Shown here one piece after another: positions 10,785-23,663 of a stretch of 64,000 nt of DNA. The translations under genes and the position numbers were made by a program. Each line of letters begins with the position of its first letter. Positions within the stretch are counted from its first letter, which is position 1. The notes below the pieces were generated by a model. That model was not told the origin of the DNA. It saw only the letters and a program-made list of their open reading frames with translations, and made no database searches. This DNA comes from Thermodesulfovibrionia bacterium (GTDB taxonomy: Bacteria; Nitrospirota; Thermodesulfovibrionia; UBA6902): contig CAMYNN010000009.1 of assembly GCA_947259735.1 (NCBI GenBank), positions 17,856 through 81,855 on the forward strand, read 5' to 3'.

Positions 10785-12620
10785 TTAAATTATTCCCGTA
10801 ACCCTGATGATTTCATCAACAGTTGTTATACCCTTCAACAGTTTTTCCACGGCGCCTTCCTTAAGCGTGCGAAGACCTTCTTTTTTTGAGATCTGCTTTA
10901 TCATATCGGGAGTGGCTTTTTCTTCAATTGCTTCCCGTATCTTCTCTGAAATTTCCATGGCCTCAAAAACACCTGTTCTTCCCAGGTAGCCTGTTCCTCT
11001 GCATTGCGGACATCCTTTCCCTGAGGGAACTTCATATTTCCCGGCTGTGTCATAACTCAGACCAAGCATCCTGCAGTCATCTTCAGACAGGGGATACATC
11101 TCAGCGCAATGACTGCACACCTTTCTAATGAGTCTCTGGGCAACTACTCCCGACAGTATTGAGTTGATGAGAAAAGGCTGTATTCCGAGGTCAATCAGCC
11201 GTGTAACGGTACTCGGGGCATCATTGGTGTGCAGTGTTGACATCACGAGATGCCCCGTGAGAGCCGCCTGCATTGCATTCGTCGCAGTCTCGTAATCCCG
11301 TATTTCACCGACCATGATAACATCCGGGTCCTGCCGGAGAATTGTCCGGAGACTGCTCGCGAATGTAGTTCCCAGCTGGGGCTGTATTGATATCTGGTTG
11401 AATTCTTCATACACCATCTCAACAGGGTCTTCTATAGTAGTGAGATTTACATCAGGTGTTGAAAGCGTCTTGAGTGCAGAATAAAGAGTTGTTGTTTTCC
11501 CGCTGCCTGTCGGTCCAGTTACGAGAATAAGACCGTAAGGAGCAGAAATCAATGATCTGAAAATGTTTAATTCTCTTTGTGACATTCCAAGTTCATCAAC
11601 TTGCTGCATCAGGATAGCCGGATCAAATATCCTCATGACAATCTTTTCTCCAAAGGCAACGGGGAGAGTGGAAACACGAAGTTCTATTTCTTTTCCATCC
11701 TGGACAGTCTTGATCCTGCCATCCTGGGGTCTTCTTTTTTCAGCAATATCCATCCGTGAAAGTGTTTTGATCCGTGAAGCAAATGCGGGGAATACCGCCT
11801 TCGGCATTTTGTGAATTGTATGGAGAACACCGTCAATCCTGAAACGCACAAGGCAGTGTTCCCTCTTTGGTTCAATGTGTATGTCCGATGCCCTCTGGGA
11901 ATATGCATAGCGCAGGAGATACTCAACGGCATTGATTATGTGCTGATCGTTTGCCCCGAGTTCCTGGACCGATTTCAGCTTTACATACTGTTCCAGATTA
12001 CCGAGGTCATTCTGAGACGAGAGTTCGTCCTGGGCGGCCGTTATGGATAATTGAAAGCCGTAGAACTCGGTAATAATCTTCATTATGTCCGACCGTGACG
12101 ATACAACTATCTCTATATCATATCCCTTCGACTGTTTAATTCTGTCTATTCCTTCACGATCAAAGGGGTTTGATGTTGCAATGACCAGAGTGTTTCCGGC
12201 AACGCTGATCGGCACAAGCTCGTGCCGCAGCGCATAGGGCTTTGAAATGATTTTAGTCACCACATCAGAATCAAGCTTCAGGGGGTCTATTTTCAGATAG
12301 GGCAGTCCAAAGTGCTTCGCAATCTCCTTCACGATGATATCTTCCGTAATATTCTGACCATTCCCGTTGACCGGCAGGTGCATGGATTCAATAATGTCTA
12401 TTATTGAAATATCAGAATGACGGATCGTCCCCGATGGAACACCTGCACCCTTTGCCTCCCTTGACTTAAGGATTCTCATACGGAACATGTCTTCCTTCGA
12501 CAAAATGTCCCCGACCTGCCTTTCCGATAAAAGGCCTGCCGATAAAAGTATATTCAACACGTTTTCTTTGGTTTTCCTGCTCATAGTGACAACATTATTC
12601 TTTCTGCCTGAACAAGGCAT
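10785..12620 (-). CDS. GspE/PilB/MshE-family secretion ATPase with N-terminal T2SSE_N (MshEN-like) domain
   Basis: 611 aa. Walker [10 protein letters not shown], Asp box, His box ([14 protein letters not shown]), tetracysteine CSHC...[14 protein letters not shown], and an N-terminal GspII_E_N-like domain. Orphan: no adjacent gspF or secretin. Confidence 0.9.
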
Positions 12621-12811
12621 AGATAAAGGGTTGCACCCTATTTGTCCGGCTCACATTCCGCCCGCATTTATTGACTCTCCTTCTGTATATAGATATTTAA
12701 CGAGACAAGCAGCATAAACCTTTAATTTTTATATTTTCCTCTGCCAGAGAGCTGAAAGTTTAAAAAATAATGCTGTATTTTTATTCAGATGAGTAAGTAA
12801 AATTAAAGACT

Positions 12812-13495
12812 ATGAAAACGTACAGAAAACCAGCGGTTCTCCTGCTGACCATTCATCTCTTCATCTGTATCTCCTGCGCTGTTATTACCGCTCCCTACAA
12901 GGTTACAAAGGCTGTTCTGAAGGGGAGCATCTGGACCATCAGGGGAGCTTATGAACTGACTGCAGGTACAACAAAGCTTGTCTACAGTGTAGGCAAATTC
13001 ACCTTTCATGTTGTCCGGGCTCCTCTGGAGTGGCCCCTCATAAATGATGATATCGAAGCGATTGACGGTCTCCCCGTGAAGGAGGCTATACGTCAGGGTC
13101 GTGTGAAGAATTCTCCCTACACGGTAAAAGGGAAACGATACTATCCTATGTCTGTGATGGAGTCAAAGAAGTACAACGAGGTGGGTATTGCCTCCTGGTA
13201 CGGCCACGAGACTCTGCGGCAGAAGGGAGGCCATATGACCGCAAATGGTGAAAAGTTCAGTCCCTACGCCCTGACAGCAGCTCACAAGCACCTGCCTCTC
13301 CCTACGAACGTAAAAGTCACTAACCTCAGTAATAACCGGGCAATAGTAGTCAGGGTGAACGACCGAGGTCCCTTTCCGAGCAGAAACAATCCTAACTCGG
13401 GAAAGAGAATTATCGATCTCAGTATGAATGCAGCAAAGAAACTCGGTTTTTATCGCAATGGTACGGCCAGGGTCCGCGTGGAAGTTATCAGTTAA
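12812..13495 (+). CDS. rlpA: Septal ring lytic transglycosylase RlpA-family lipoprotein (double-psi beta-barrel)
   Basis: 227 aa. Lipoprotein signal (LFICISC). DPBB motif IASWYGHETLRQKGGHMTANGEKFSPYALTAAHKHLPLPTNVKVTNLSNNRAIVVRVNDRGPF. Confidence 0.85.
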   Translation: MKTYRKPAVLLLTIHLFICISCAVITAPYKVTKAVLKGSIWTIRGAYELTAGTTKLVYSVGKFTFHVVRAPLEWPLINDDIEAIDGLPVKEAIRQGRVKNSPYTVKGKRYYPMSVMESKKYNEVGIASWYGHETLRQKGGHMTANGEKFSPYALTAAHKHLPLPTNVKVTNLSNNRAIVVRVNDRGPFPSRNNPNSGKRIIDLSMNAAKKLGFYRNGTARVRVEVIS

Positions 13496-14125
13496 GTACA
13501 TGCCTGTTCTCCCGAGGAATAGAGACATTGTTCACCTAAGTAATCACCTCGATGAAACATGAATGATATTCATGATGTTCATGATCTGTTCACGGTTTGT
13601 TTTTTTAATTTTCTATGGGTTATTGTCAGACTATGTCAAGTTACACATTAATGATTTTTCCTGCTTATCAATATATCTGAGTCAATCGGAGTGCCGTTGA
13701 CTCTTCGCTTAAAGCATCAAGTTCAATTCCATTAAAATGAGCTGAATTTATTCCTGAAAGAGAGAGGTTCGGCGGGAGTGAAAAATTTTTTTTATCGGCA
13801 TGAAATAAATAATGTATGCTATGAGCAGGAGGTAGATTTTCATTCTCTTTATTTAAAAGGAGAGGGGGAGATATGTCTGCGCAGGGCTTGAATCATACTC
13901 GAAACAGTGAGGTTTCTGCAAGTATTACGGCCTGACTGCGGAGCAGGAAGACCGAACCGTAAATTTTCGTATAATAGATCACCGGAATTTGCAGGAAAGG
14001 CGGAAAATAAAAAAATATCTCGCCGGACCGGCATTTATTCTGGTAAAATTAAAACAAGCTTTAAAAGCGATTTCTTATCAGTCGGAAAACCGTGGAAAAG
14101 GAGCACCATCCTTTAGGCAGTTCAG

Positions 14126-14941
14126 ATGCGAACCAGGACTAGCGAAGACATGTGGTACGCGAAAACTTCGACCGGCGGGGTTTTCATAAGCTATCGGCGT
14201 CAGGACAGCCAGGGCTTTGCCGGCCGTCTGGCCGACGATCTGACCGATCAGCTCGGTGACGAGCAGATCTTTCGCGACGACGAAATCCCGGAGGGCGAGG
14301 ATTTCACCGAAATTCTGGGCAGCGCGCTCGACACTTGTCGAGCACTGATTGTCGTCATAGGGCGAGACTGGTTGGATACCCGCGATGCCGCTGGTGAGCG
14401 ACGGCTGAATCAACCGGATGACTGGGTGCGACTCGAGATTGAAGCAGCTCTCGCCCGGGATGTGTGGGTTTTGCCGGTGTTGGTGAGTGGAGCAGCCATG
14501 CCCCGGCCAGATGAGCTGCCGCCGAGCCTGGTCGCACTAACGAACGTACAAGCGTTCAATCTCTCCGACCGGCGGTGGGACTACGATATCGAACGGCTCA
14601 TGGCCCTCCTGACCAACCGAATTCCGGCATTGACCGCCGCTTCATCCAAAAAATCCGCCAAATCGGTCAATGGAGAGCGGAGCAGCGAGATCGAATCAAC
14701 CCCCCTGGGCACCGTTATCGCCCGAGTTCAGGAATACCTCGCGACGGCCGCTGGAGATAACGCGAGCAAGCCACGGTGGGGATTGACACTTTTTTTGTCC
14801 GTGATCAGGCGCGCGGTCGTCTTGGGAATAGCGGCGCTGGTGGCGTACTTCGTTTTGGAAAACTACGCGCCGCCGGCGGTCCGGAATTTCGTGTATGGCT
14901 TTCTTGGTTTCGTCGCTGATCTCGTGAGATCGGTTTTTTGA
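14126..14941 (+). CDS. TIR-domain protein with C-terminal transmembrane helices (candidate NADase/defence effector); GC-rich, likely horizontally acquired
   Basis: 271 aa. TIR hallmarks VFISYRRQDSQGFAGRLADDL ... ALIVVIGRDWLDTRD ... DDWVRLEIEAAL (a W-x-x-x-E motif with a putative catalytic Glu). Two predicted C-terminal TM helices (LTLFLSVIRRAVVLGIAALVAYFVL ... FVYGFLGFVADLV). Codon usage and GC (~60%) clearly differ from the flanking genes. Flanked by ~600 and ~500 bp of AT-rich non-coding DNA. An alternative start lies at 14150. Confidence 0.75.
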   Translation: MRTRTSEDMWYAKTSTGGVFISYRRQDSQGFAGRLADDLTDQLGDEQIFRDDEIPEGEDFTEILGSALDTCRALIVVIGRDWLDTRDAAGERRLNQPDDWVRLEIEAALARDVWVLPVLVSGAAMPRPDELPPSLVALTNVQAFNLSDRRWDYDIERLMALLTNRIPALTAASSKKSAKSVNGERSSEIESTPLGTVIARVQEYLATAAGDNASKPRWGLTLFLSVIRRAVVLGIAALVAYFVLENYAPPAVRNFVYGFLGFVADLVRSVF

Positions 14942-15441
14942 GCTGGATAGAAATGAGTCAAAATAAAGAAGAGGATTCAGGACTGACTTCTAACGGCAAT
15001 CAATAAAATACAGTTTCAGCTCATACATTGACTCTTAGATAGAGTCTTCAATTCTTACTGGAACAATTTTCGATAATAACTGGTTTAAATCCTGCCTCAT
15101 TTATTCATTATCGACTGAAAGTTACAGAACCGGACTGTCTCCAATCCCCTCTTATTGAGATTTCAGGGCATTCTTCAAAAAGCGATGCAACTTACAGTAA
15201 CAAACGATTTGAATATTTACTTTTTATTCAACATTACAAATGTAAATCAAACTAATTCAATCTTATTTTTTTCTTTACAAGCGAGCGTTTTGCCCTTGAT
15301 AATTAAACATTTCACTGCTATGATTATGAGTTAATAAGGAAAGAAATTTTATATACGGTATTGGCGACAGATAAATATTAACATCTCCCCCGATTCCATT
15401 ATTAAGCAAGAAATTATAATTTCTGAAAGGAGTAATTTACT

Positions 15442-15711
15442 ATGTCTGAAAAGAACCATGTTCCAGTTCCAAAAAATACACCTGCTTTCATTTGTGCAAA
15501 CTGTGGGGCTGTCGCACTTGACTCAAACAGTATCTGCAAGGTGCAGGGTAAAGGAAAAAAGGCTGACTGGTGCGGCACTAAAGGAGTTAAGCCGCCGGCG
15601 TTTTGTCAAAATAATGTGAATAATGACAGATGGCAGTGTCAAAACTGCGGAACAATATCTGTCAATCCTGAACTTCTCTGCGAGCCTGCAAAACTAAAAG
15701 CAACTGAGTAA
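15442..15711 (+). CDS. Small Cys-rich zinc-ribbon-like protein (two CxxC pairs), unknown function
   Basis: 89 aa. CANCGAV and CQNCGT motifs plus additional Cys. Strong RBS gaaaggag 8 nt upstream of ATG. AT-rich, located within the same island as the TIR gene. Confidence 0.5.
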   Translation: MSEKNHVPVPKNTPAFICANCGAVALDSNSICKVQGKGKKADWCGTKGVKPPAFCQNNVNNDRWQCQNCGTISVNPELLCEPAKLKATE

Positions 15712-15859
15712 ATATTGTCCGGCAATGGTAACATCAGAAAATAATCTCATGAATAGTCGAATCTTATTCATGACAACCTCTTAAATGTATTTTAGCAGAA
15801 GAGTTACAAGTGCAACAGAGCCGAAGTGGAAATGGATAATTAATCCGAAAATACATGGT

Positions 15860-16366
15860 TTATTGTGACACCAGATCCTTTACCATGCTCTCCGGTCTAT
15901 CCACTGACAGCAAAAAAGGTCTGCCATTTCGTTGTTCGATGAAGATGAAGCTGTCAATCCTTGTTATATAGAAGCGGATGAATCCCCGTTTTCGACTCCA
16001 GAGGAGACCAAATCCGCCGAACAGCCCGCCCACCCCTATTCTCACTGCGAAGCCGATTTCCTTCTTCACCTGGTCTTTATCAAGTGTACGAACTCCGACA
16101 ATACCGGCTCTCGCTATATGGAACTTTCTCAAGGGCCAGACTATTGTCAAACCTGTGCTGTCTACAATATAATGAGACGGTCTCATCCAGAGCCAGACAC
16201 CGATCATGAGAAGAACAAAGAACAGTGCTATCGGAATCAGCGGTGTATTATGATCAGTAAGGGCGAAATAGATAAGGAGAAGAGGGACTGCTGCAATGAC
16301 ATACGTAATCACCCTGATTGAGCCCGACATGGGCGGGGTCCTGTATGTTGATGCTCGTTCCCTCAT
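15860..16366 (-). CDS. Membrane protein with bacterial PH-like (bPH_2/DUF304-type) domain
   Basis: ORF 15860..16432. The upstream transporter ORF ends at 16363, so the probable start is an internal Met (MRER at 16366 or MSGS at 16330). Two TM helices followed by a PH-like fold (PSHYIVDSTGLTIVWPLRKFHIARAGIVGV). Confidence 0.5.
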   Translation of the reverse strand: MRERASTYRTPPMSGSIRVITYVIAAVPLLLIYFALTDHNTPLIPIALFFVLLMIGVWLWMRPSHYIVDSTGLTIVWPLRKFHIARAGIVGVRTLDKDQVKKEIGFAVRIGVGGLFGGFGLLWSRKRGFIRFYITRIDSFIFIEQRNGRPFLLSVDRPESMVKDLVSQ

Positions 16367-20324: not shown

Positions 20325-21452
20325 ATGACAACACCGGTGAAAAATGAACAACTCAAAGTCCTTGTTCTTGAACCCTATTATGGAGGTTCTCACAAATCCT
20401 TTCTGAAGGGCCTGAAAAATCTTCCCTTCACGTTTGACTTCATGACCCTGCCTGCCCGCAAGTGGAAATGGAGAATGCGCCTTGCGGCTCCTTACTTTGC
20501 ACAGAGACTGCATGAACTGAAGAAGATGTATGACTTTATTCTATGCTCTACCTTTGTTGATGTTGCTGCTTTTCGGGGTCTGGCTCCCTCCTGGGTAAAT
20601 GAGGTTCCGGTCCTGACCTATTTTCACGAAAACCAGTTCGCCTATCCCACGCAGGTACATTATGAACGCGACTTCCACTATGCACTCACAAACATGACGA
20701 CCGCCCTCGCCTCTGATTGCATTGCATTCAACTCCCAATATAATCTCGATTCTTTTCTTTCGGGAATCGAAAAATTGCACAAAAAATCACATGACCTGAA
20801 ACTGGATGACCCCGTGAATGAAATACGTGGAAAGTCAAAGGTAATTTACCCCGGCATTGATTTCTCAGATATCGATGACGCCAAAAAAGCCGGTGACACA
20901 GGCCCGCCAGTAATTTTGTGGAATCATAGATGGGAACATGATAAAAATCCCGAACTCTTTTTTAAAACACTCTTTGATCTGGACAGAGCGGGGATTGCCT
21001 TCAGTCTCGTCATCCTTGGCGAAAAATTCCAGCAACACCCGCTCGTATTTGAAGAGGCCAGAGAAAACCTCTCTCAAAGAATCCTGCACTGCGGGTATAT
21101 CAAATCACGCCGGGAATATGCGAAATGGCTTAAACGCTCTACTATAGTGGTCTCTACTTCAAACCATGAGTTTTTTGGAATGTCGGTAATTGAGGCCGTA
21201 CGGGCCGGATGCCGTCCAATTCTTCCAGCCCGGCTGTCCTACCCTGAGCTTTTCCCCCGAGAATACCTCTATAACGAGAATGAATTTGCTGCCAGACTGA
21301 AAGATGCAGTTTTAGAGGGGAAGAGGCTTACTGACGAGCAGGCACAAAGCATGACAGATATGTTTTCGTGGGACACCCTTCGGCCTGTTTATGAAAAGTG
21401 GATTTTAAACAGCAGGAAATTCAGGCAGACAATATCGAGGCAAACTGAATGA
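20325..21452 (+). CDS. DUF3524-domain glycosyltransferase (GT4-like; GTDC1/tRNA-queuosine mannosyltransferase-like family)
   Basis: 375 aa. N-terminal LKVLVLEPYYGGSHKSF characteristic of DUF3524. C-terminal GT1/GT4-like region (HEFFGMSVIEAVRAGCRPILP). Confidence 0.6.
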   Translation: MTTPVKNEQLKVLVLEPYYGGSHKSFLKGLKNLPFTFDFMTLPARKWKWRMRLAAPYFAQRLHELKKMYDFILCSTFVDVAAFRGLAPSWVNEVPVLTYFHENQFAYPTQVHYERDFHYALTNMTTALASDCIAFNSQYNLDSFLSGIEKLHKKSHDLKLDDPVNEIRGKSKVIYPGIDFSDIDDAKKAGDTGPPVILWNHRWEHDKNPELFFKTLFDLDRAGIAFSLVILGEKFQQHPLVFEEARENLSQRILHCGYIKSRREYAKWLKRSTIVVSTSNHEFFGMSVIEAVRAGCRPILPARLSYPELFPREYLYNENEFAARLKDAVLEGKRLTDEQAQSMTDMFSWDTLRPVYEKWILNSRKFRQTISRQTE

Positions 21453-22800: not shown

Positions 22801-23346
22801 ATGTTAGAAAAACTTTTTACATCGGGAATCAGGGCTGACATCATGTCACTTCTTTTCAATAATCCTGAAGAGAAGTTTTATGTTAGAGAGATAGCCAGGC
22901 TTATCAGTAAAAATCCTTCGGGAGTAAAAAGAGAGCTTGATAAACTTCTCAAGATGGATCTTGTTTTAACTGAAAGGGAAGGCAATCTTAAATATTTTAC
23001 GGTAAACAGGAACTCCCCTCTCTTTCCCGAACTCAAAGGTTTGATTGCAAAATCCCTTGGTCTTCCCGGTGCACTTAAATCTGTACTGAAAGCATCGGAG
23101 GCAAAGTCAGCCTTTATTTACGGCCCCTACGTAAATAATGCAAACCGTTCTTCCCTTGACCTGTTTGTTGTTTCCGATTCAAATCATATTCGAAAAACAC
23201 TTGATGATATAGAAAAAAGATTCGGGAGAGAAATTAACCTTACGTTAATGAATCTTTTAGATTATAAGTCCAAGAAAAAGAGCGGAGACCGTAAGCTCAA
23301 GAAGCTTATCACCGCGAAAAAGATAGTACTTCTTGGAAGACTATAA
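22801..23346 (+). CDS. Winged-helix HTH + minimal nucleotidyltransferase (Pol-beta fold) domain protein
   Basis: 181 aa. N-terminal HTH-like region (YVREIARLISKNPSGVKRELDKL). NTase signature FIYGPYVNNANRSSLDLFVVSD (hG[GS]-x-D-x-D pattern). Confidence 0.55.
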   Translation: MLEKLFTSGIRADIMSLLFNNPEEKFYVREIARLISKNPSGVKRELDKLLKMDLVLTEREGNLKYFTVNRNSPLFPELKGLIAKSLGLPGALKSVLKASEAKSAFIYGPYVNNANRSSLDLFVVSDSNHIRKTLDDIEKRFGREINLTLMNLLDYKSKKKSGDRKLKKLITAKKIVLLGRL

Positions 23347-23387: not shown

Positions 23388-23663
23388 ATGGCCGCCAAGA
23401 AAAAAGCCGCTGCAAAAAAGAAAAAGACTACCGCTAAGAAGAAAACTACTGCGAAGAAGAAAACTACTGCGAAAAAGAAAACTACTGCTAAGAAGAAAAC
23501 TGCGAAGAAGAAGACTACTGCGAAAAAGAAAACTACCGCTAAGAAGAAAACTACTGCTAAGAAGAAAACTGCTGCGAAAAAGAAAACTACCGCTAAAAAG
23601 AAAACTACTGCTAAGAAGAAGACTGCAAAAAAGAAAACTGCTGCGAAAAAGAGAAGAAGATAG
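23388..23663 (+). CDS. Lysine-rich histone H1-like / Hc1-like nucleoid protein composed of (KKTTAKK)n repeats
   Basis: 91 aa. MAAKKKAAAKKKKTTAKKKTTAKKK... encoded by a 21-nt tandem DNA repeat. RBS aagggggtg. Followed by a clear intrinsic terminator. Antisense ORFs of 132 and 134 aa over the same repeat are artefacts. Confidence 0.65.
   Translation: MAAKKKAAAKKKKTTAKKKTTAKKKTTAKKKTTAKKKTAKKKTTAKKKTTAKKKTTAKKKTAAKKKTTAKKKTTAKKKTAKKKTAAKKRRR

Follow-up and report, generated by a model that had tools for sequence, protein, structure and literature searches.

What does a solitary gene for a membrane-anchored TIR protein do in a bacterium to whose base composition it does not conform? The question is raised by a stretch of 64,000 nucleotides of a Thermodesulfovibrionia bacterium (assembly GCA_947259735.1, contig CAMYNN010000009.1, positions 17,856 to 81,855 of the forward strand), analysed at its full length and referred to here as the window, in which the gene lies at 14126..14941. 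A preliminary description of this DNA, made from the sequence alone, had proposed a single-gene defence or abortive-infection module that cleaves nicotinamide adenine dinucleotide (NAD+). The locus is best read as a single, horizontally acquired, monocistronic gene, and its product is probably an NAD+-cleaving TIR enzyme (NADase), as judged from its residues. In kind the protein is already known, as an uncharacterised TIR_2 protein; what is new is that a SARM1-type TIR occurs on its own and is anchored at its C-terminus. The gene and the parts of its product are as follows (residue numbers in brackets; TM, transmembrane; ORF, open reading frame):

14126..14941, plus strand: coding sequence (CDS) of the TIR-linker-TM protein, an ORF of 271 aa from the ATG at 14126; in public annotation 263 aa from the ATG at 14150
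14180..14599, plus strand: TIR domain of SARM1 type (19-158)
14276..14305, plus strand: BB-loop segment DDEIPEGEDF (51-60), aligned without gaps to SARM1 DVEKLEAGKF (D594-F603)
14435..14437, plus strand: codon of the putative catalytic glutamate E104, in W100-x-x-x-E104, aligned with SARM1 E642
14627..14746, plus strand: linker (~168-207), two helices flanking a low-confidence stretch
14813..14866, plus strand: single TM helix (230-247), with R228-R229 just before it; mean hydropathy 1.82, hydrophobic moment 0.52
14879..14938, plus strand: C-terminal amphipathic helix, not TM (252-271); mean hydropathy 1.14, hydrophobic moment 1.87

The CDS of the preliminary description is upheld as a 271-aa ORF, and the public protein (P0001, 263 aa, 100% identical, recorded on three contigs) starts from its second ATG. 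The TIR domain was likewise recovered, both with Pfam (TIR_2, PF13676; 52.8 bits at a cut-off of 28 bits, E 7e-14, profile positions 1-121 of 122 covered) and by structure prediction and fold comparison. Conservation was assessed in two family alignments, A1 with 20 and A2 with 65 members. The glutamate that had been described as conserved is E104 (in DDWVRLEIE, the W-x-x-x-E of helix alpha-C), which is invariant in both; in the BB loop, D51 and G57 are invariant and E53 and F60 nearly invariant in A1.

A profile of 20 family members, compared with all PDB sequences, retrieved SARM1 and Caenorhabditis elegans TIR-1 only (E ~4e-10). The AlphaFold2 (AF2) model, computed from 65 homologues, has a mean predicted local distance difference test (pLDDT) score of 86.2, with the TIR domain mostly at 90-98 and one 10-residue block at 85. 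When this model was compared with the PDB using Foldseek, the top 33 matches were all SARM1 or TIR-1 (best 9mw2_B, template modelling score 0.85, root-mean-square deviation 2.2 Å, 27% identity), with AbTir, plant TIRs and SPARTA ranking below them. At E <= 0.001 there were 77 PDB matches, and among the matches listed all were TIR domains; the flavodoxin-like alpha/beta fold is superposable. The window protein shares with SARM1 and TIR-1 the FISYRR strand and the W-x-x-x-E, and its BB loop is equal in length to that of SARM1, with the Gly displaced by one position. Residue by residue, Y23/R24/R25 map to SARM1 Y568/R569/R570, D51 to D594, E53 to E596, F60 to F603, W100 to W638 and E104 to E642; these positions are invariant or nearly so in A1 and A2, and PDB titles naming the mutants G601P, H685A and E642A (the last in 7cm7) allow the SARM1 numbering to be verified. 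We take this residue set to match the expectation for an active TIR NADase.

By sequence and by predicted fold, the nearest solved relative is the SARM1 TIR. The ARM-SAM-SAM-TIR architecture is absent, TIR_2 being the sole domain matched and the remainder linker and TM helix. Because it has neither ARM nor SAM domains, the window protein is no orthologue of SARM1, but related to its TIR within the clade only (27-28% identity); in comparison with SARM1, it would form no octameric ring and have no allosteric sensor of nicotinamide mononucleotide and NAD+, and it carries a C-terminal TM anchor instead. SARM1 is itself associated with organelle membranes.

The TIR domain is joined to the membrane part by a helical linker of ~60 residues overall, in which AF2 places helices at 160-174 and 186-199 (263-aa numbering) with pLDDT 51-60 between them, and for which A1 and A2 give a conserved amphipathic helix with the consensus LRxLGxRVLEE. 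The membrane anchor of the preliminary description is confirmed, and its count of two TM helices has to be corrected to one. Across the 65 homologues, the region of residues 230-247 is the sole uniformly hydrophobic, uncharged stretch, with conserved Lys or Arg on its N-terminal side, and the columns of the C-terminal helix alternate between hydrophobic and charged; AF2 packs this helix as a hairpin against the TM helix (pLDDT ~95). There is no signal peptide, and the TIR starts ~10-18 residues from the N-terminus. From the absent signal peptide and the positive charges N-terminal to the TM helix we infer that the topology is likely N-in/C-out, with a cytoplasmic TIR and a short tail outside. 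A profile of the C-terminal 106 positions gave 44 hits in 1.84 billion representative proteins; those of near-full length bear the TIR motifs of the family and the others are for the most part short fragments, with P0313 and P0317 as marginal exceptions. This make-up of the hits makes the C-terminal module specific to this TIR family, and its occurrence on other N-terminal domains was rejected.

Tethering of a TIR by a single hydrophobic helix has been described for TirC of the amoeba Dictyostelium, an active NADase (PMC13142454). Removal of its TM tether rendered it toxic to the amoeba, and its authors infer that the tether is essential for taming the NADase (PMC13142454). In TirC, however, the helix is N-terminal and the TIR, found in a eukaryote and acquired from bacteria, belongs to a TIR-STING-like clade, whereas in the window protein the helix is C-terminal and the TIR of the SARM1 clade.

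A protein search yielded 1348 relatives, among them ~260-aa proteins (P0002-P0017) with 40-51% identity over 88-97% of the length. By its full-length alignment, its TIR motifs and its TM plus amphipathic helix, the window protein falls within a widespread family of ~260-aa, singly encoded proteins defined by a TIR, a linker and a single C-terminal TM helix. The 120 best homologues comprise 55 with a TIR and one C-terminal TM helix, 47 with a TIR and five C-terminal TM helices (~400 aa, TIR ~59% identical), one with an N-terminal DUF4231/SLATT domain before the TIR (P0068), 15 in which no TM helix was detected, many of them fragments, and two that lack the search motif and are unclassified. Membrane segments are present in 103 of the 120; the fusion of a TIR to a membrane part, which had been thought unusual, is the norm in this TIR clade. 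The terms 'TIR-TM' and 'TM-TIR' were not met with in the literature searched. For most of the 56 full-length genomic homologues, one TM helix is predicted at ~30-55 residues from the C-terminus. Overall, the family is of rare and patchy occurrence: a pattern-limited search of the contigs of 185,579 species genomes (one genome per species) found 342 loci, which are spread over Gammaproteobacteria (Chromatiales, Thiodiazotropha, Arenicellales, Granulosicoccus), Rhodocyclales/Zoogloeaceae, Desulfobacterota, Actinomycetota and cyanobacteria, with mostly free-living sediment or wastewater bacteria, plus symbionts, as hosts.

The five-TM sister architecture (P0059 and 46 similar proteins) is abundant in metagenomes, with genomic examples in metagenome-assembled genomes (MAGs) of Actinomycetes (L022, L023, L028), and its membrane domain has no Pfam match. 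In a Caulobacteraceae relative (L070, 6215-7681), a TM helix connects such a TIR with a domain of FGE-sulfatase (formylglycine-generating enzyme-like) type; as this domain is often a periplasmic ligand-binding module, the protein is possibly a receptor-style TIR.

The origin of the window gene was assessed from its composition, its flanks and public contigs. Two of the latter, from two MAG assemblies, were read (L001, L002). The flanking features are:

13496..14125, no strand: upstream intergenic region, 630 bp, GC 0.387, no gene called in L001 or L002
14915..14944, plus strand: terminator-like hairpin and T-run, an 8-pair stem GCTGATCTCGTGAGATCGGT followed by TTTTTT, overlapping the stop codon; a consensus match only
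14942..15441, no strand: downstream intergenic region, 500 bp, GC 0.318, with promoter-like sites for the next gene

As had been seen before and as a GC profile bore out, the gene is unlike its neighbours in composition, with a GC of 0.586 (0.66 at third codon positions) against 0.377-0.517 in the other 46 long ORFs and 0.450 in the whole window; it is the sole outlier among the 47 ORFs, and the GC-rich tract (~14100-14910, at 60-bp resolution) coincides with the CDS and extends no further. Of the AT-rich non-coding island in which the gene had been placed, the non-coding part stands, the flanks of 630 and 500 bp being free of called genes, but their AT-richness is nothing particular: the 27 intergenic regions of the window have a mean GC of 0.37 (0.27-0.48), and apart from the flanks, five of them measure 454-870 bp. 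As the intergenic DNA of the genome is equally AT-rich, the flanks are compositionally ordinary and the CDS is the only anomaly. This foreign composition, ~13 points of GC above the host genes, indicates a recent horizontal import from a GC-richer donor; a gap of the same size is seen in L005, and nearly all of the 80 family loci compared have native GC. There is no Rfam match across 12600-16000, no flanking direct or inverted repeats were found around the gene, and the genes called at the locus in the public assemblies include neither an integrase nor a transposase.

An assembly chimera is excluded because the gene and its upstream, RlpA-side junction recur in both public contigs; the downstream flank is visible in L001 only, L002 stopping ~200 bp past the gene. 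Over the TIR-gene stretch, L002 matches the window at 99.97% identity and L001 at 96-98%, with per-gene identities to L001 of 90-100%. In the TIR coding sequence, window and L001 have 0 differences in 792 bp, while neighbours differ between the MAGs by up to 11%; we rejected this as evidence of a sweep, as NapG (822 bp) and a 546-bp gene are identical too. In the spacer downstream of the gene, L001 has 57 bp extra (10985-11042) at window position 15133, and the L002 contig ends ~20 bp beyond.

Comparison with syntenic genomes lacking the island, which the preliminary description had suggested, revealed no empty site: in 38 metagenomic loci whose RlpA is 47-84% identical, both flanks differ from those of the window, and in L127 and L128, whose NapA is at least 90% identical, synteny is lost after the nap operon. 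In L128, napD is directly followed by a gene for a QTMAN_N glycosyltransferase, which has its counterpart at window position 20325. Because L128 joins these two genes, the window from ~8.7 to 20.3 kb (~11.5 kb, running from hyp419 to PilZ and with the TIR gene inside) is variable between relatives, and because this whole stretch is variable, the insertion boundaries of the TIR gene cannot be set.

For the function of the protein we propose, with moderate confidence, a self-contained, tail-anchored, NAD+-consuming TIR that is activated by TIR clustering at the membrane, with growth arrest or death as the consequence. The protein would reside at the cytoplasmic membrane, on its inner face, and its TIR domains would be held apart or autoinhibited until a trigger, such as phage infection or a perturbation of the envelope or membrane, caused them to self-associate through their BB loops. 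This association would complete the active site around E104, upon which NAD+ would be hydrolysed, possibly with cyclic ADP-ribose (cADPR) by-products, and the loss of NAD+ would arrest or kill the cell. NADase activity, N-in/C-out topology, activation by clustering and a role in phage defence are thus what we infer for it. Abortive infection or stress-triggered arrest is a plausible role; the context does not favour one in defence.

There are precedents for a TIR acting as a single gene. Single-protein TIR systems defend Escherichia coli and need their catalytic residue to do so, and 12 of 32 cloned TIR loci defended (PMC11350192). TIR-V and TIR-VI as well as TIR-IX of E. coli, and SpbK of Bacillus subtilis, resemble the window gene in consisting of one partnerless gene for a TIR with a catalytic Glu, and the expected output, NAD+ loss and abortive infection, would be shared (PMC11350192, PMC12847820). 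This likeness is one of description, and these systems are described without a fused TM anchor; the trigger of SpbK is a protein of the temperate phage SPbeta, whereas the window family has no association with defence islands or prophages. The Tcp virulence proteins TcpC, BtpA and TirS also have a TIR of TIR_2 type with NADase potential, but in the reverse order, with an N-terminal region followed by a C-terminal TIR, and they stem from pathogens and target Toll-like receptor signalling of the host. TcpC, too, has a membrane segment.

A number of observations weigh against the proposed function. The residue corresponding to SARM1 H685 is an invariant Asp in the family (D148 in the window protein). 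No plus-strand sigma-70-like site was recognised upstream of the gene (13496..14125). A check with PADLOC, as had been suggested, returned weak partial matches only for the TIR protein itself (ThsB1, 20.1 bits, E 7e-5, over 62 residues) and none for its neighbours in the window; no defence genes lie within ~5 kb on either side, the nearest candidate defence match, PDC-M05A, being ~8 kb away. At the family loci, PADLOC likewise gave only generic helicase and methyltransferase matches among the 144 nearest ORFs, a weak negative in view of crude gene calls and two genes surveyed on each side. Neither 50,697 phage records nor IMG/VR yielded a homologue; the plasmid search found six megaplasmids with TIR-only relatives, and the viral search distant giant-virus TIR proteins. 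Finally, Chromatiales-like and Zoogloeaceae genomes have the gene at a stable, syntenic locus of native GC, which is atypical of defence genes.

This last point concerns species genomes with conserved gene order. In seven Chromatiales-like species, the gene is preceded by one for a ~441-aa membrane protein and followed by one for a CitMHS/TrkA_C transporter, and in six Zoogloeaceae/Rhodocyclaceae species it is preceded by a TauE gene; the TIR identities track those of the neighbours, with 58-76% against 65-93% in the former and 86-97% against 89-98% in the latter. In some lineages, the family behaves like a stably inherited chromosomal gene. The preliminary description had named housekeeping homologues, conserved in synteny and with native GC, as a ground for giving up its proposal: synteny and native GC are indeed found in two clades of the family, whose rarity and patchiness overall do not bear out a housekeeping role. 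The ~441-aa protein is multi-pass and without a Pfam match. Its gene, 0-120 bp upstream of that for the TIR and on the same strand (L029, L031, L034, L035, L036, L042, L049), may form a clade-specific operon with the latter; it is absent from the window.

The conserved gene order argues for a non-immune role, in which the protein would be a chromosomally maintained, membrane-associated enzyme cleaving NAD+ or other nucleotides, or a stress or dormancy switch, the window copy being a lateral transfer. This is consistent with the native GC of nearly all 80 loci, with the lack of any phage, viral or mobile-element association, and with the neighbours, as the 144 nearest ORFs match GGDEF proteins, TauE, CitMHS and ABC transporters, PCMT, methyltransferases, DEAD helicases, FeoB and similar. 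We nevertheless consider it rather unlikely, although possible: the rarity and patchiness of the family, within the pattern-limited search, speak against it, the gene is clearly transferable, as the window copy and L005 exceed their hosts by 13 GC points, relatives of the window organism have no TIR gene beside RlpA or the nap operon, and all characterised enzymatic TIRs work in immunity or cell death (general knowledge; PMC11350192).

Like ThsB, the TIR might instead generate a signal, a messenger of the cADPR type that would act on an effector whose gene lies elsewhere in the genome. Its weak likeness to ThsB-type models, the PADLOC match to ThsB1 and an NCBIfam match to ThcB4 (32.7 bits), would fit, as would the reports of SARM1 as a maker of cADPR and of many new Thoeris types with TM effectors (10.64898/2025.12.03.692087). 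The scores are, however, far under the family cut-offs (220 for ThcB4), and the 56 full-length family loci have no conserved neighbour, the largest cluster being 8 of the 56 and clade-specific, while it is a linked effector that defines Thoeris; we regard this alternative as improbable. Thoeris, CBASS and Pycsar themselves are excluded, as their family models score far below cut-off and there is neither a fused sensor nor a linked effector. They have in common with the window protein the TIR chemistry on NAD+ (ThsB) and the use of membrane-spanning modules as death effectors (Thoeris II and VII, CBASS, Pycsar), but there separate, linked genes encode the TIR and the TM effector, or else the TIR forms a fusion with a SAVED, STING or cyclic nucleotide sensor beside a cyclase, whereas the window has one polypeptide and no linked gene. 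No ThsA, SIR2 or other effector was found near the TIR gene, in agreement with the preliminary description. No fused nucleotide-sensor domain, as in the TIR effectors of CBASS, Pycsar and type III CRISPR (TIR-SAVED, TIR-STING, PycTIR, CARF-TIR), was found in the protein (SAVED_TIR reaches just 14 bits), no cyclase is among its neighbours, and SLATT/DUF4231 (PF14015) has no match in it.

Killing could also be the task of the membrane part, if TIR oligomerisation clustered the TM and amphipathic helices and the membrane were breached, with NAD+ cleavage secondary or a signal in cis, as with the TM effectors of CBASS, Pycsar and Thoeris. The near-constant membrane fusion of the clade, be it by one, by five or by an N-terminal DUF4231/SLATT segment, and the confidently modelled, family-specific hairpin of TM and amphipathic helix point in this direction, and in type VII Thoeris SLATT effectors are gated by TIR-made cADPR (10.64898/2025.12.03.692087). 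As a pore former, however, a lone 18-residue helix would be minimal, conservation is lowest in the C-terminal region (mean identity ~30% against ~60% for the TIR), and the invariant residues are the catalytic ones of the TIR, so that this alternative seems quite doubtful.

On a bolder extension, the bacterial TIR clade nearest to SARM1 would be membrane-tethered as a rule (membrane segments are carried by 103 of the 120 nearest homologues), with fixed chromosomal loci in several lineages. The protein would then be no phage sensor but a switch acting within its own cell, which would sense the integrity of the membrane or the energy state and respond by destroying NAD+. The injury-triggered self-destruction by SARM1 at organelle membranes would have in it a counterpart among prokaryotes, and possibly its ancestral state; we offer this as speculation that is unlikely to hold.

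That the gene is a recent import, silent or decaying and without current function in its host, is very improbable: the strong compositional mismatch and the lack of a recognisable promoter or a good Shine-Dalgarno sequence (GGAG 22 nt before the ATG at 14126, and AGGA alone 11 nt before that at 14150) would suit it, but the gene has an unbroken reading frame and keeps all residues that are invariant in the family, and the CDS is identical in two MAG lineages, the last being weak evidence given the identical NapG and second gene.

The genes around the self-contained NAD+-consuming TIR proposed here are, in window order, napAGHBD, PilZ, an MshE-type ATPase, RlpA, the TIR gene, a Zn-ribbon gene and genes for a bPH_5 protein, an SBF transporter, DsrE and VKOR. 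The Zn-ribbon gene had been considered as a partner or regulator:

15442-15711, plus strand: Zn-ribbon gene, 89 aa, 8 Cys in two CxxC-containing halves, GGAG 8 nt before the start

The ORF and its ribosome-binding site are as had been described; the partner role was rejected, as this is a highly conserved solitary gene with promoter-like sites of its own. A terminator-like hairpin and 500 bp holding these sites separate it from the TIR gene, and its 149 homologues (55-90% identity), in the contexts examined (L084-L088), are lone genes with differing, unrelated neighbours and no TIR. The few homologues with a source name are from Nitrospira or Nitrospirae. As the 90%-identity cluster of the window NapA also includes a protein of a 'Nitrospiraceae bacterium' genome, a Nitrospirota host of ~45% GC is tentatively held probable. 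Some sources label the protein 'RNA-binding Zn-ribbon (DUF1610)'; curated families give only a marginal match to a YgiT finger.

Three further genes of the window were recorded. The RlpA-like gene (DPBB_1; 12812-13495, plus strand) is ~89% identical between window and L001, with indels, while the adjoining genes are 97-100% identical; it is locally hyper-divergent or recombined. The ORF at 22801-23346 (plus strand, 181 aa) has the lowest GC of the long ORFs in the window (0.377) and matches PDC-M05A of PADLOC with E 1.3e-38, as the one defence candidate near the TIR gene, its product looking, by sequence, like a winged helix plus a nucleotidyltransferase. The ORF at 23388-23663 (plus strand, 91 aa), also called as a gene in L001, consists entirely of Lys/Ala/Thr repeats (KKKTTAKKK...) resembling histone H1/HC1-type proteins.

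The locus is a clean example of a lone foreign ORF within native intergenic DNA. If active, its product would be the simplest membrane-tethered bacterial TIR NADase known, a single gene without a partner, and among solved TIR structures its catalytic domain is closest to human SARM1. As such, it would provide a tractable bacterial model for the control of SARM1-type NAD+ destruction by tethering and clustering, and it would put to the test whether TIR genes that stand alone outside defence islands serve immunity at all.

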